The notes beneath the pieces are model-generated. The model was not told where the DNA came from and ran no database searches. It saw only the letters and a program-made list of their open reading frames with translations. The translations under genes were made by a program, and so were the position numbers. A DNA stretch of 52,862 nucleotides, the filler included, from Perkinsus olseni (Eukaryota), in NCBI GenBank assembly GCA_013115125.1. It is 2 parts of 2 records of this genome, joined end to end, with 100 filler letters (N's around TTAATTAATTAA, not from the genome) between each part and the next. Parts side by side here need not be neighbours in the genome. Positions count along the whole stretch, not along the records: positions 1 to 26,401 come from JABANN010000483.1; 1 more part is not named here. One strand, given 5' to 3'. Positions 2,062 through 24,554 of the stretch are shown here, in pieces (within the stretch, counting starts at the first letter, position 1; every line of letters begins with the position of its first letter).

Positions 2062-2220
2062 ATGCGCTTCGCTATCCTCATGGTCGCTGCAACCCTCATG
2101 GCCACCTTCGGTCTCAAAGTCGGTGCCTCGCCGAGAAAACTCAATTGGGGCGGATGCCCTAAGAGTTGCCCTTCTCTTTACCACTGTGGCTGTGATCAAC
2201 ACGGCTGCCGTTGCACATGA
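2062..2220 (+). CDS. Secreted six-Cys peptide, type A copy 1 (52 aa)
   Basis: Hand translation MRFAILMVAATLMATFGLKVGASPRKLNWGGCPKSCPSLYHCGCDQHGCRCT*; hydrophobic N-terminus; paralogues at 4045, 6456, 10568, 12414, 24351. Confidence 0.85.
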   Translation: MRFAILMVAATLMATFGLKVGASPRKLNWGGCPKSCPSLYHCGCDQHGCRCT

Positions 2221-4044
2221 AAATGCTATTCGTCCTCACAGCATCTATCAGGGATATTTCATAAGCTCCTCAGTGATGGACGTGGCTAGAACGTCGAGGC
2301 CCCCCTGTTGTCCGACTTTTTCTTTCTCGGTTGGCTGCCTTGCTCACCATTGGAAAACCTGGCAGACGGCGCTGCTCTGATTTTCCCCAGTTGCGCAACT
2401 GCTCTCCGATGGCGGAATGAGGCAACAATTGAGAGATGTTCCCTCCCTGTATGGTGAAATATCGCTGCTCATTATGTAGCATTCACTAGTCGGAATAGTT
2501 TATATCGGCATCAATCATGTTTTTTTCGTCTGTAGTGACGCTCTAGGTGATGCGGAGTCCGCACTGCGAAAGTTTTGCTCGGGCCGAGCCATGGCCACTA
2601 GTCCCACTTTTAGCTTTTAATCGGGTCGTCGACGGCCTGGACTACATTTGATCGCAGTGCTTCGAGGCTCTGCATTCAAGTCCCCTCCATCGAGTTAGAT
2701 AGTACTGCGTTCAGTCCATCGAACATTATAATGAATCTCGTACCGCATCCAATGCAGCGCATCGAGAAATCGATTGTACGCATGGTACAGCATGGCAGCC
2801 GGGCTGCCGTAAATGCCTCAGTGGGCTCCATCAGAACTTCTGATTCAGAAGTTAGGGGCTCCGGAAGAGTTTGACCGCGAGTAACTGTACCGGCACTAAG
2901 GTCCCCAGGGTCTCGCCTCTCAAGTTGAGAGTCTCAACAGATGGTCTCGCGGATAGACACATCCCGAGAATCATGGACATGCCGGCGACATAATGGCGCC
3001 GGCAGCGCCGTCACTGTCTCGCGGGTCGGGCTAATACAACGGTGTATCATACACCGTGTATGCATGCGTGTCAGCCAGGCTTTGCCTGTACAATTCGCAC
3101 TCACTTGATTCCACCTTCCACGATTAATGTACAGTGCAGGGAGCTCCGATGCGCAGCCTGCGAATATGCAATATTTCCCTCTTTCTAGCAGTCTCCTTGT
3201 CTCGCCGTGAGTTCGTACTCGGCCGCACGCATAAGTTCAGACGTCCTTCGCCACCAGTGATCGTATACGTGACGGAGAATTCAATTCTGGCGGGCTTCAA
3301 TATGAGTGGAAGCTGCAAGTCAGTGCGAGCTTGCAGCGCTGATAGTCCTCATCCGGATCCTACCAGATCTCGACTGGACCGTCGTGATCATGCCATTGCC
3401 GGTGTTGATAGCTCTGCTGCTTAGAGTATTCCCGGTTATTGGCGAGAATTGCAATTGAAGCAGATTGCCCTTTCAGCGTGAGGAAGCGGGAGCAGCGCTC
3501 ACAGCATTTATCTATCTCTGTTTCTCATCAGGATCTCATCTCCTTCTCTTACAACTATGCATCTGAATATCCTCGTGTTCGCTGCATCTCTAGCGGCGAG
3601 CTTCGGTGACCAAGACAGATTCTGTCTGAAGATAGGGAGGGCAGGGGAACTTCTGTCTGACAGAACGTTGCGGTTAGGTACGAGTGCTTCGGTGTCCCCA
3701 TCTCAATCCTCATAGTCAGAGGTTTCATTCTCGACTTCTCCGTCGCTTCGTACGTGCGTACGCTCTCTGTACGCTTTCGTGCTTCGTGCGTCCAATACGG
3801 TATTGGCAATACCCCTCGCAATCGTGTGCATTCTTCGTCATGTTATTGAAAGCAGGTTCCACATAGCTTCACAATGAGATCAGTCCCCCCATTCTTTGAA
3901 CCCTGTCTCAGAAGCGACAACAAGCTCGCAAGTCTGTTGTACCTCAGCCTCAGCCACTTGGGTACCACGATAAAAGCGGTCACAACATAATTGCTCTTCA
4001 GCCGCTGAAATTCAGACTATCGACAGCCCCTGTCTTTTCCCTCA

Positions 4045-4197
4045 ATGCGCTTCGCTATCCTGATGTTCGCTGCTACCCTTGTTGCCACCTTGAGTATCAA
4101 AGACGAGGCCGCGCCGGACACTTCTAACTTTAAGTTGGGCGGATGCTCCCAGTGCCTTTACCAATGTTATTGCGATACTCACGGCTGTCGTTGCTGA
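4045..4197 (+). CDS. Secreted six-Cys peptide, type B copy 1 (50 aa)
   Basis: MRFAILMFAATLVATLSIKDEAAPDTSNFKLGGCSQCLYQCYCDTHGCRC*. Confidence 0.85.
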   Translation: MRFAILMFAATLVATLSIKDEAAPDTSNFKLGGCSQCLYQCYCDTHGCRC

Positions 4198-21414: not shown

Positions 21415-24350
21415 GTTGTGACTAGGATGGGCTCACTAGAAACTAACGTCGAGGCTGAAATACGGCAGACTTATATTGGGAAGAGGTAACATTGAAATTC
21501 TCATTGTGGAAGCCTGCATCCCGAATTGCTCAGCTTGGTGATCACAGGGTGAGTAGATGACGGTAACAACTCAAGTTAGGAAGTACAGTTGCCTTTACGG
21601 GATACGACTCAACTCAGCCAAACGAGTGCTGGGTGCAGTCCAATCATGAAATCTCTCCAATGAAGAACTCACTTTGCCGAGCGATCTTGACGCGTACACA
21701 TATTCGCTATACATGTACTATACATGTACTCGTATACATATATGTACTCGAAGCTTGAGCGGCGCTCGTCTACATCTGTCTACACTAGACAGTCTACCTC
21801 GATCAGCCGCTGATAGAAGGAGACTGTCTTGTGCTGCTGATCATCAGCGAGCAGAACAGGTCCGGCTCTTCGCCTTTCGTTCTGCAGAAATACAGATGTC
21901 CTCACCATATCCATTCGTTAGTGAGCCAACTATGTCCCACGTCATCAGTGGCGACTTCTCACTACGTCGCCTTGCCTGCTTTCGAGTCTGACAGATATGA
22001 TGATGGGCGGAATCACATCTCAGCCAGGCGATCCACTGTCTTCTTCTTGCCGGGAGCGTTCGCCCGCTCGTCAAGTGTATCTCGAGTAGTACTCCATCCG
22101 CACTGTCTGTTCTTCCTAACATGTTGATCACCAGAACTAGGGATTACATGCCACTTTTTGAGTCCGCGCTCAATTCTTATTACCTCCTTCGGGCCAGCGC
22201 CTAATGGGTGTCCCTTGTACGGTACAAGTTGTACCTCGACAGGCTTCACCCGGCTGAGCCGGATCCATCGGCCCGGCTCCATCGGCCCGGCTCCTTCGTC
22301 CGTTGGTTTGAACGCGAGTGCGAGGCGGTTTCAGCGCTAGTAACACTTTCAACTTGCTAGTGTTGTGACCCCATGGTTGGTAAACTCGACCTGGTAAACG
22401 TAGACTTGAAAACCTTATTATCAGTCTGCTTATGATCACAAACGCAGCGATATGTAGCTCAGCGTAACACAATTAATGGAGACAATATCCACAGACAAGA
22501 TCGCACAATTGGAGACATAACACTGTTGAGGAGAGACTTACGTGCTCGGTACACGATGTACCACTCGCAGTACCATGATTCCTGGTACTGGAACTTCCTG
22601 GTCCAGGAAGGCGTTGATTATGTCGTTCTATTGCATATTGGAATGCCCTATGAATATTCGTGTTTCTACCGTGGAAACACCGTAGAAATTCTTCGTCGCT
22701 GACCTGCTAATCCTCAATGAGGATTCCTCATCGTGTTGGGCGGTTTCAGCGCGTTATGTCCTCGTACGAGGAATTCCTTGATAGGAGAGGGTCACTTCAG
22801 GAGTAGCGATTATATTCAGCCCCAGACTCTGGGGCCCAGAGCCAGGTTACCAAATTCCATGGCGTGATTAGCTGACTCCGAAGTAGCTCAGCTTCAGAAA
22901 AATCTATCGCACAGCCAGTCGTACGTATGAAAGCATCTGCACTGTCTACATAACACATTCGTGCTGTGCTTTTAGTAAAAGCTTTATACTAGCTTTGCAT
23001 TATCAATCCATTCCCTCTGAGAGAATCTCTCAACTCCCCCACTTCCTCTCTGCTCTATCTCGCTAACTATGAGCCCAATTTACTTATGTTGTGTTCTACA
23101 ACGACTGCCAAGAGATAGTGCAACGTACCAGATCCTTGTTTTTTCAAGAAGGTGCCCGTGCACTTGGTGAAGTTCACCGAGTACAAGGCGAAGTGTTGTT
23201 GGTATGCGGTTTAATGAAGGACCGATCTAACCCTACTTGGAGTTCATTAACGTCTTACAATCTGTGATTCGTGGTCTTCTCACTCCATCATGTGCGAAAT
23301 CAGCTATGAGGAAGTCAGGTTTGTTACTCGTCCATAGTAGGCGTAAGTTGTCGTTAGTCCTAAGGACTAGGGTTGTCGCGCGTCCTTTTCTTTGATTCTC
23401 GGTTTAGAATTCCATCGCATCGACACGAATGACTGCCTCAATGATGAATCACCTAGCGAAGCCCAGTAACTGGGCCCCAGTTCCGACCAGCATTATGCAG
23501 CGGCTATGTTCATCGAGACGGCGAGAGGGACAACCTCCCCTCCTGTCCGCTCCCGGCGCAGGCTCGAGCGGTCACCGTGACCGCGAGGATGGAGGAAGAT
23601 GCAGAAGAAGTCGGTCGAAGCCTTAGAGCAGGAAGACGTGATGACTAATTCATGTATTGCTCGTTATTAAGGAACGTTTCAATCGATTATACACGTGCCT
23701 CGATTATATACCTAGATCAACAGCCTGTTGACAACAGGACCTCCGAAGTGGTACGGCACGCCTGTGGACTTCGCACGCCCAGTCTGAGCTCTGATCGTTC
23801 TATGGGCAGATCGTTCTTCTGCCAGGGTCACCTACCAAAAGTCACTATGGCCGGATCACACTGGTGTTTCCGGCTCGAAATCTCGAAAGGAACTGCACTG
23901 TAACTCGGGAAAGTGTGGGTATTTGAGACGGGGTTCAAAGAAAGGGAAGAACCTGGACTCGAGGGGAGTTGAACGATAATGACTCATCAATAATAGATTC
24001 TACAGCGTAATCTAGCCTAGCGTAAGTTCTAGCCTAGAAAGCACACTCATGCACGCGGATGCAAGGCGCAGAATGATGCATGATACGAGTAGTTAGTAAG
24101 CAGTAGAGATCATTGTCACTATAGTGCACATCCTGGACCCTCCTTAGGCGGGAACATACACGGGTGACGCGTGTACCTCCATGAGCACCAATTTGTCTCC
24201 ACCACGCGAGACTGTCTCCCTTCTATGGGTGTGACGTGACGTCCACGTCATCGCCGATGACCTGCTGTTCATTGCTCCGTTTTTCACTGATGACAACATT
24301 CCTCCTCTCGCAGTTTTTACGACACTTTATATTTCCGTTTTCTAACACTC

Positions 24351-24554
24351 ATGCGCTCCGCTTTCTTCGCAATGGCCGCTACTTTAATGGCGGCCTTTAG
24401 TGCCCAAGAAATCGTCTCACAAGACAGTCCCCTGTTTCCACGGAAACTTAATGGGAACTCCCTCGGGGGCGGATGCTCCGGATGCTCAGCAGAAGAGTGC
24501 TACTGCGTTACATTCAACTGTTTCTGCTACAAGAAGCCGACAATCCTCCTATGA
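24351..24554 (+). CDS. Secreted six-Cys peptide, divergent copy (67 aa)
   Basis: MRSAFFAMAATLMAAFSAQEIVSQDSPLFPRKLNGNSLGGGCSGCSAEECYCVTFNCFCYKKPTILL*; same leader (AATLMA), RKLN, GG-C and Cys spacing. Confidence 0.85.
   Translation: MRSAFFAMAATLMAAFSAQEIVSQDSPLFPRKLNGNSLGGGCSGCSAEECYCVTFNCFCYKKPTILL

Follow-up and report, generated by a model that had tools for sequence, protein, structure and literature searches.

Tandem micro-open reading frames of Perkinsus olseni predicted to encode a family of secreted six-cysteine peptides

We analyzed a 52,862-nt stretch of DNA from Perkinsus olseni, an alveolate that parasitizes bivalves (assembly GCA_013115125.1), in the following called the window, in which two records are joined by filler letters. 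Positions 1–26,401 derive from JABANN010000483.1, and the two parts need not be neighbors in the genome. Six very short open reading frames (ORFs) within this record share a signal-like leader, a variable spacer, and a cysteine-rich core. Sequence comparisons support that they constitute a genuine, coding-like family of signal-led six-cysteine peptides. We interpret them as Perkinsus-restricted, tandemly duplicated, and fast-evolving genes for secreted disulfide-rich peptides that would bind an extracellular partner, and give this reading a probability of about 0.6. The six ORFs had been picked out in a sequence-only reading of the window; their coordinates were borne out, and all of them lie on the plus strand:

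2062–2220, +: c2062, type A, 52 aa, six cysteines; putative acceptor-to-ATG 5′ untranslated region (5′UTR) at 2033–2061
4045–4197, +: c4045, type B, within unit 4016–4197, 50 aa, six cysteines, shortest core
6456–6617, +: c6456, type A, within transcript unit 6425–7108, 53 aa
10568–10723, +: c10568, type B, within transcript unit 10539–11199, 51 aa, five cysteines
12414–12569, +: c12414, type A, within unit 12385–12569, 51 aa, six cysteines
24351–24554, +: c24351, divergent type D, within unit 24312–24579, 67 aa, six cysteines, a C-terminal tail and no DxHG

Alignment of the six predicted peptides agreed with the common leader proposed before, as M1, R2, A4, A9, A10, T11, and A14 are invariant, and a G followed by G or D stands directly before the first cysteine in all six. 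The hydrophobic leader, about 17 residues long and with the consensus MRF[AS]IL-x3-AAT, is found in the window members and in three database relatives (P0004, P0005, and P0007; see below), and most members start their core with G-G-C-x-x-C. The proposed scaffold C-x2-3-C-x3-5-C-x-C-x4-C-x-C is kept in five of the six members, because the codon for Cys4 of c10568 is TAC (Tyr) at 10694; in the same copy, His replaces Arg between Cys5 and Cys6. When the core of a broken copy (C2) and the three relatives were added, the six-Cys spacing was complete in nine of ten sequences, c10568 being the exception. The motif D-x-H-G occupies the x4 loop of five members, as had been noted, and c24351 reads VTFN there. 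Homology among the copies was further indicated by tblastn within the window (E-values of 1e-5 to 1e-29). The ATG of c6456 is internal to a longer ATG-initiated ORF (6291–6617). Regarding the leader, Met-Arg is followed by 14 hydrophobic residues (mean Kyte–Doolittle value 1.8–2.55), with T/A at position 15 and G/S at position 17. Signal cleavage sites carry small residues at −3 and −1, and the leader fits a cleavable signal peptide for the endoplasmic reticulum (ER) that would end at residue 17.

The pattern of changes among the copies points to coding constraint. In a DNA alignment of five sequences (c24351 left out; flanks of 250 columns), all 14 runs of insertions or deletions (indels) within the ORFs were multiples of three, compared to 20 of 86 (23%) in the flanks, which corroborates the earlier observation of in-frame length differences. 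Pairing c24351 with each of the other five members gave 45, 51, 42, 48, and 54 gap columns within the ORF. For the ten sequences, five of six Cys columns were invariant, compared to none of the 11 other core columns (Fisher p = 0.001), and the column majority was matched by 59/60 cells in Cys columns and by 59/110 cells in the other core columns. Synonymous switches between TGT and TGC were seen among the copies at Cys3, Cys4, and Cys5, together with a single non-synonymous change. In the signal region, second codon positions changed least (15 changes, compared to 59 at first and 77 at third positions), as is expected if hydrophobicity is kept. The ratio of non-synonymous to synonymous substitution rates (dN/dS) was 0.31–0.99 over 15 pairs. 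When codon-usage log-odds were trained on 1486 codons from six other window genes, the ORF frame scored +48 bits in total, with positive values in 6/6 members, compared to −52 and −139 for the other frames and negative values in same-length 3′ controls. GC content at third codon positions was 0.59–0.64 in the six ORFs and 0.59 in the training genes. Mean identity was highest in the signal (0.87) and the 5′UTR (0.84), lower in the core (0.70) and the spacer (0.66), and dropped further along the 3′ flank, where it went from 0.53 down to 0.37. The ORF was more similar than both adjacent 100-nt flanks in 13/15 pairs; the exceptions were c2062/c6456 (a tie) and c4045/c12414 (higher identity in the upstream flank).

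None of the six exact peptides was present in a collection of 15 billion proteins. A profile search of 1.84 billion representatives yielded seven matches at E ≤ 0.001, of which six were inspected and three were identified as true homologues with the same leader, spacer, core, and D/E-x-H:

P0007: P. marinus Pmar_PMAR011920 (XP_002774048), 118 aa, profile E 2.8e-8
P0004: P. olseni, 177 aa, a gene model fusing two separate units
P0005: P. olseni, 138 aa, a translated 5′UTR preceding a c2062-like peptide
P. olseni database entries of these two lengths: FOZ60_010791 (KAF4682276, 138 aa) and FOZ60_001106 (KAF4689834, 177 aa)

P0007 and c4045 share 37% identity (pairwise E 2e-11), and P0007 keeps the leader and all six cysteines at its C-terminus. 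P0005 differs from c2062 at 8/52 residues, all located after residue 20 and none of them a cysteine (by eye). Since the P. marinus relative has both the leader and the six cysteines, the family would be older than the split between P. olseni and P. marinus; after this split, leader and scaffold appear to have been kept, while the rest of the peptide changed. The other inspected matches were rejected: P0006 and P0010 are long tandem-repeat proteins with scores summed over many weak stretches, and P0008 has a repeated GGCDHC stretch without leader and full scaffold. The family had been described as hidden. This applies insofar as gene callers mishandle the ORFs, but the three relatives are already public as mis-modeled, longer “hypothetical proteins”, in which the 5′UTR is translated or two units are fused, and which have neither a name nor a study.

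Further searches are in line with the claim that the peptides belong to no known sequence family. The six peptides had no Pfam match at E ≤ 1, Pfam searches with the C2 core and the database relatives gave nothing relevant, and no PDB chain was found at E ≤ 10 with the profile or a mature peptide. A word-index protein search with c12414 alone returned no candidate; with a profile, such searches returned nothing at E ≤ 0.1 for near lengths and only P0004 and P0005 for longer ones. Metagenome scans with peptide patterns and with a 22-nt 5′UTR/leader DNA pattern gave no match, and neither did an Rfam scan of window positions 1–30000. The ESM Atlas model of the P. marinus relative had a predicted local distance difference test (pLDDT) value of 0.53, and its matches (≤0.77, template modeling score below 0.5) provided no lead. 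The literature searched, with supplements outside the search, held no description of the peptide family or of its database identifiers. As far as databases show, the family is apparently restricted to the genus Perkinsus. By these comparisons, the family itself would be new, with no name, paper, or recognized relative outside Perkinsus, whereas the architecture of small secreted Cys-rich tandem peptides is known.

The family is apparently transcribed. Thirteen public runs match parts of 1800–11700; none of them is recorded as RNA, and three were guessed to be RNA. Four runs (X9, X10, X12, and X13) were compared over 4700–24699, a region comprising four of the six ORFs (without c2062 and c4045) and C2. 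We read these runs as RNA-like because of their patchy cover (0 to 6673, with 7/30 bins empty in X9) and a 50-nt skip with GT..AG ends. Contigs cover three of the four members in this region. For c6456, they span 6425–7108 (X10, 0 differences) and 6440–7007 (X9, depth 494), in addition to three exact pieces in X12. For c10568, a contig extends from 10594 to 11199 (X10, depth 548), with exact cover in two runs and a piece in a third; X9 reaches a depth of 6673 in bin 10703–11369, with adapter sequence after 11193. For c24351, an exact contig covers 24312–24579 (X10). Contig depth reflects expression poorly; the contig of a neighboring 129-aa gene (4856–5245, −) had a depth of 17 in X9, compared to 494 for c6456. 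X13, a run labeled as another organism, holds a 229-nt contig over c24351 (24314–24542) with 18 differences. The 17 listed ones all fall within 24363–24473 (leader and spacer) and affect 15 codons, with seven synonymous changes and eight conservative replacements; the 69 covered core bases show no placed difference, there is no stop, and all cysteines are kept. In the 129-aa gene, X13 shows five base differences and one gap in 555.

The contig 5′ ends lie on the AG (6425 and 24312) of a pyrimidine tract followed by AG, or just after it (24314). This acceptor is conserved 29–37 nt before the ATG, with the AG of c6456 at 6425–6426, and no other ATG is found between the acceptor AG and the ATG of the ORF (by eye). 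The 6425 contig (X10) starts with nine extra letters that do not match the genome. At the other side, the 3′ contig ends of c6456 and c10568 are at homologous positions. Passages of PMC2868825 describe that Perkinsus mRNAs receive a spliced leader by trans-splicing, and the abstract of PMC2606063 that the dinoflagellate leader ends in AG and that the Perkinsus leader is one base different. A leader ending in AG would explain contig matches that start on the genomic AG. The contig starts at a conserved acceptor thus fit the suggestion of spliced-leader mRNAs, and we infer trans-splicing of these genes.

Several observations weigh against our interpretation. Loop constraint is weak, with dN/dS of 0.77–0.99 in some pairs, and core-only dN/dS among type A copies was 1.24 and 1.42, based on about two synonymous differences. 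Between c4045 and c10568, identity drops from 94% in the ORF (dS 0.10) to 55% in the 100 nt that follow; part of the contrast between ORF and flank may reflect gene conversion instead of selection. Because the six copies are related, they do not count as independent samples in the codon and Cys statistics. Of all members, c10568 has the deepest cover; it is the one without Cys4, and its closest database relative (P0004) reads Arg at the position of its stop. Two family copies (C1 and C2) are broken. Concerning transcription, the RNA label of the runs is a guess, the contigs carry no strand information, and c12414 is nearly without cover (depth 2.4, X9 only). Furthermore, one of the 18 differences in X13 is not listed and could sit near the contig end.

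After the single TGA of c10568, the frame stays open for 220 more codons (10721–11383, +). No Pfam family matched this stretch, within which the contigs stop at 11199; P0004, with Arg at the stop position, comes from another P. olseni assembly. The long frame could be due to chance, be the result of a recent stop gain, or be a read-through product. On its opposite strand, a search for a further copy of the 129-aa gene found none.

We propose the following course from gene to peptide. Each gene would give rise to an mRNA of about 0.65–0.7 kb, whose 5′ end would be located at the pyrimidine-tract-AG acceptor, the presumed spliced-leader site, and the micro-ORF would therefore begin at the first AUG. 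The precursor of 50–67 aa would begin with an ER signal peptide of 17 residues, followed by a spacer of 13–23 residues that varies and is mostly acidic, and by a core of 19–28 residues with the pattern G-[GD]-C-x2-3-C-x3-5-C-x-C-x4-C-x-C. After signal cleavage, a peptide of 33–50 residues (3.6–5.4 kDa) would fold with three disulfides, probably into a CxC-x4-CxC beta-hairpin ladder with a D-x-H-G turn and an N-terminal CxxC loop, and would be released to the parasite wall, a vacuole, or the medium. There it may bind a specific extracellular partner, i.e., a host or microbial protein (for example, a protease) or a metal ion; this is the weakest step. The predicted mature peptides have 33–36 residues and 3566–3869 Da in all members except c24351 (50 residues, 5393 Da), an isoelectric point of 5.2–8.9, and a net charge of −2.1 to +3.9. 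The cores alone correspond to 2100–2413 Da in five members and 3.0 kDa in c24351, with a Cys content of 6 in 19–23 residues and 6/28, respectively, and no dibasic site precedes them. Their net charge of −2.1 to +0.9 confirmed that the cores are not strongly cationic. A specific extracellular partner is favored because of the neutral-to-acidic charge, the conserved Asp/His beside Cys, and the variable loops, and the low positive charge makes target or metal binding likelier than membrane lysis. We thus favor a target-binding extracellular peptide over an antimicrobial pore-former, and would name any specific target with low confidence.

The cysteines could also serve a different purpose. Secreted metallothionein- or metallophore-like peptides might handle Cu/Zn via CxxC/CxC and Asp-x-His in extracellular or vacuolar space, where they would either buffer the metals that haemocytes use against the parasite or scavenge scarce metals. 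Cysteine makes up 26–32% of the core, arranged as CxxC, CxC, and CxC and mostly introduced by G-G-C-x-x-C; the x4 loop keeps His in 8/10 and Asp in 7/10 sequences; the peptides are neutral to acidic; and the odd Cys number of the expressed c10568 is easier to reconcile with thiolate ligands than with a disulfide scaffold. However, the signal peptide would direct the product into the oxidizing ER, where six cysteines normally pair as disulfides, and D and G at the ends of the four-residue loop are equally well explained as hairpin-turn formers. c24351 and C2 are without D-x-H, Tyr, Phe, and His are present, unlike in classical metallothioneins, no Pfam metallothionein model matched at E ≤ 1, and nothing relevant turned up when the literature was searched for Perkinsus in connection with haemocytes and Cu/Zn. 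We consider a metal-handling role unlikely. Antimicrobial hairpins of the protegrin, tachyplesin, or theta-defensin kind, which would disrupt membranes of competing bacteria in decaying host tissue or of host cells, are quite improbable. Their two-disulfide ladder spacing recurs in the CxC-x4-CxC motif, and small size, signal peptide, tandem arrangement, and variable loops would suit such a function, as would the mature charge of +3.9 in c2062. The mature charge is nevertheless −1.1 to −2.1 in four of the six peptides and −0.3 in another one, the low core charge applies to all, and no amphipathic cationic face, no cathelin or other known antimicrobial prodomain, and no Pfam match was found.

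Two further explanations question the ORFs themselves rather than the function of their products. The copies could be transcribed but untranslated non-coding or decaying repeats, in which ORFs persist by recent duplication and gene conversion. dN/dS near 1 in some pairs, the lost cysteine, the stop missing in a relative, the two broken copies, a 5′UTR as conserved as the signal region, the gene conversion that would partly explain the contrast between ORF and flank, and the absence of exact peptides from the protein collection are compatible with this. Non-coding repeats would not readily account for indels that are all in frame within the ORFs compared to 23% in the flanks, for Cys-specific conservation including synonymous codon switches, for codon usage that is positive in the ORF frame only, for a P. 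marinus relative that keeps the leader and six cysteines at 37% identity, or for ORFs that begin at the first AUG of the contigs, and we regard this explanation as highly improbable. Alternatively, the peptides could be N- or C-terminal parts of longer proteins, as in the public models of 118, 138, and 177 aa (P0007, P0005, and P0004), and both the c6456 frame, open back to the ATG at 6291, and the 220 open codons after the single TGA of c10568 would allow for this. The contigs of c6456 start at 6425 and 6440, downstream of the 6291 ATG, which thereby lies outside the transcript, and the contig end at 11199 lies inside the long frame after c10568; based on these contig ends, we set the longer models aside. 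Moreover, the upstream extensions correspond to translated 5′UTR and acceptor, an in-frame ATG further upstream is missing from four of the six copies, and P0004 joins two separate units, which leaves longer proteins barely credible.

The label “defensin/toxin-like” that the sequence-only reading had attached to the cluster is not supported as kinship. It describes an architectural analogy, since no sequence homology was found in Pfam or PDB and the peptides are not cationic; for defensins (beta-, CS-alpha-beta, and theta), neither a sequence model nor a PDB chain matched the window peptides. Conotoxin precursors consist of a signal, a pro-region, and a Cys-rich mature part, are encoded by tandem multigene families, and combine a conserved signal with a variable mature part, a gradient that is typical of venom and host-defense peptide families. 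The window family resembles conotoxin superfamilies in its three-part precursor, tandem genes, conserved signal and 5′UTR, variable mature part, and fixed cysteines, but it differs by the absence of sequence similarity (Pfam, PDB) and of a dibasic processing site, and by its origin from a protist parasite instead of a venom gland. We know of no conotoxin framework that its Cys framework matches. CxC-x4-CxC is the spacing of protegrin and, with c10568 being one cysteine short, occurs in five of the six members as it does in protegrin, tachyplesin, and theta-defensin. Unlike these hairpins, the family has an extra N-terminal CxxC pair and a core charge of about −2 to +1, and, unlike protegrin and the cathelicidins, it has no cathelin-type prodomain (Pfam) and no strongly cationic mature peptides. 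Metallothioneins are generally cytosolic, without a signal peptide and with few or no aromatic residues. High Cys density in the form of CxC and CxxC is shared with them, in particular with the short fungal Cu types, whereas the signal-like leader in all members, Tyr, His, and Phe in the cores, and the lack of a Pfam model match set the window family apart. Small secreted Cys-rich effectors of fungal and oomycete pathogens form a functional class (e.g., PMC7170778). Like the window family, they are small, have a signal peptide and an even number of cysteines, are restricted to a lineage, diverge quickly, and are encoded in clusters with other genes for secreted proteins; the effectors are nonetheless a class and not homologous, and usually have 50–300 aa in the mature form compared to about 20–50 aa here. 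For Perkinsozoa, no small secreted Cys-rich effectors were reported in the literature searched.

To define the extent of the family, the whole window was scanned with DNA and protein hidden Markov models (HMMs), which recovered exactly the six members and two broken copies and nothing else:

3538–3715, +: broken copy C1, HMM match at 3538–3618 (nhmmer E 3e-8)
8706–9116, +: broken copy C2, HMM matches at 8706–8848 and 9004–9110

C1 combines a pyrimidine-CAG acceptor of its own with a leader resembling that of the family (MHLNILVFAASLAASFG) and contains no Cys core; its ORF (3557–3715) continues into unrelated sequence. In C2, the leader (about 8754–8849) is split by a 43-nt palindromic insertion, and a 165-nt stretch flanked by TTCGGT repeats (8841–8846 and 9006–9011) lies between leader and core. 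The core itself looks intact, with six cysteines in frame at 8994–9113 and a stop at 9114–9116. A spliced form of C2 was considered and rejected, as no in-frame canonical donor/acceptor pair (by eye) and no contig joint was found there. An RNA-like contig at 8977–10022 (X9, 996 nt), which overlaps the C2 Cys core with its end, skips the 50 nt at 9754–9803 with GT..AG on the minus strand. These ends are compatible with splicing of a transcript from the minus strand. A convincing ORF was not recognized within the contig, and the run labeled as another organism has a 67-nt replacement near 9754–9803. The gene order A(2062)–C1–B(4045) / A(6456)–C2–B(10568) / A(12414), followed by the divergent c24351, is that of a duplicated three-gene higher-order unit, and the cluster is read as three units of the type A–broken C–B. 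With one member that has lost a cysteine and two broken copies, the cluster appears to evolve by birth and death.

The upstream regions of the cluster share a palindrome, GACAG-NNN-CTGTC, which occurs six times in the window, always on the plus strand, compared to 0.07 expected occurrences:

2039–2051, 4022–4034, 6433–6445, 10545–10557, and 12391–12403, +: GACAG-NNN-CTGTC in the 5′UTRs of the A and B genes, 15–23 nt before the ATG, loop variable
3614–3626, +: GACAG-NNN-CTGTC just after the leader of broken copy C1

An RNA hairpin (GACAG-NNN-CUGUC) was rejected as an explanation, as z-scores were weak (−1.2 to −2.2) and the stems are invariant, without covariation. The palindrome may be a protein-binding or translational control element. 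Upstream of c4045, a 12-nt duplication (4004–4021) generates two consecutive TTCAG acceptors before the 5′UTR.

The cluster lies among lineage-specific secreted-protein genes, which applies to the 129-aa gene, a 165-aa gene, a 141/142-aa pair, and a subtilase. Genes of the window contain introns; a kinesin motor fragment, for example, fills only part of an ORF. The 129-aa ORF falls into a 90% cluster with two P. olseni proteins, and other neighbors relate to entries from P. olseni, P. marinus, and P. chesapeaki. The following features were observed in addition:

14927–15033 and 23578–23684: repeat pair, 97% identical
15274–15340 and 23039–23105: repeat pair, 90% identical
16268–16780, −: degenerate paralogue of the 165-aa protein, 4.6 kb upstream of it, 45% identity (tblastn)
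20917–21414, −: 165-aa signal-led protein, no Pfam family, exact contig 20801–21444
26227–26501: a 75-nt direct repeat in two copies (96% identity, 100 nt between them), then 44-N runs at 26402–26445 and 26458–26501
28754–30091, +: subtilase, Peptidase_S8 E 4.5e-28, 4 kb downstream of c24351 in window positions
37589–38017, − and 38962–39387, −: tandem 142/141-aa signal-led Cys-rich proteins, 78% identical

The repeat pairs lie within 14894–15360 and 22957–23684. These two regions reach contig depths of about 4000 in X9 and are connected by “goes back” joints, which suggests either a repeated element with strong transcription or a gene that has copies at other places. The 26227–26501 region is probably a tandem array left unresolved in the assembly. 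In the subtilase, the Asp, His, and Ser motifs are recognizable (by eye), and secreted subtilisins are discussed as Perkinsus virulence factors in passages of PMC2868825. The 142/141-aa proteins have an internal two-fold repeat (…C..LC…GWGSYCK…VCFG.L.K….C…TD..C…), and Pfam gave only a sub-threshold PAN_4 match. At the 90% level, they (window positions 37.6–39.4 kb) cluster with hypothetical proteins of P. marinus and P. chesapeaki, and are thus far more conserved than the micro-peptides. With 37% identity to P. marinus, compared to at least 90% for the 141-aa neighbors, the micro-peptides show much faster evolution.

Clams, oysters, and abalone suffer major losses from Perkinsus species, whose known secreted molecules comprise little besides proteases and antioxidant enzymes. 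Two circumstances explain why the family escaped notice so far: an expressed sequence tag study of P. marinus took only ORFs of at least 75 aa, according to passages of PMC2868825, and public models fuse or extend the ORFs. This also provides a practical warning, as micro-ORFs at the 5′ end of trans-spliced mRNAs would be systematically mis-annotated in the Perkinsus lineage. If abundant and secreted, the peptides would be candidates for host interaction, diagnostics, and peptide scaffolds. A bolder and rather doubtful idea is that they form an abundant, diversifying, venom-like repertoire of Cys/His hairpins, with fixed signal and 5′UTR and fast-changing loops, that would neutralize particular host defenses within haemocytes, at its boldest as extracellular or vacuolar Cu/Zn buffers or as inhibitors of host or parasite proteases, with a new six-Cys fold; if true, this would constitute a new class of virulence factors in a notifiable shellfish parasite.

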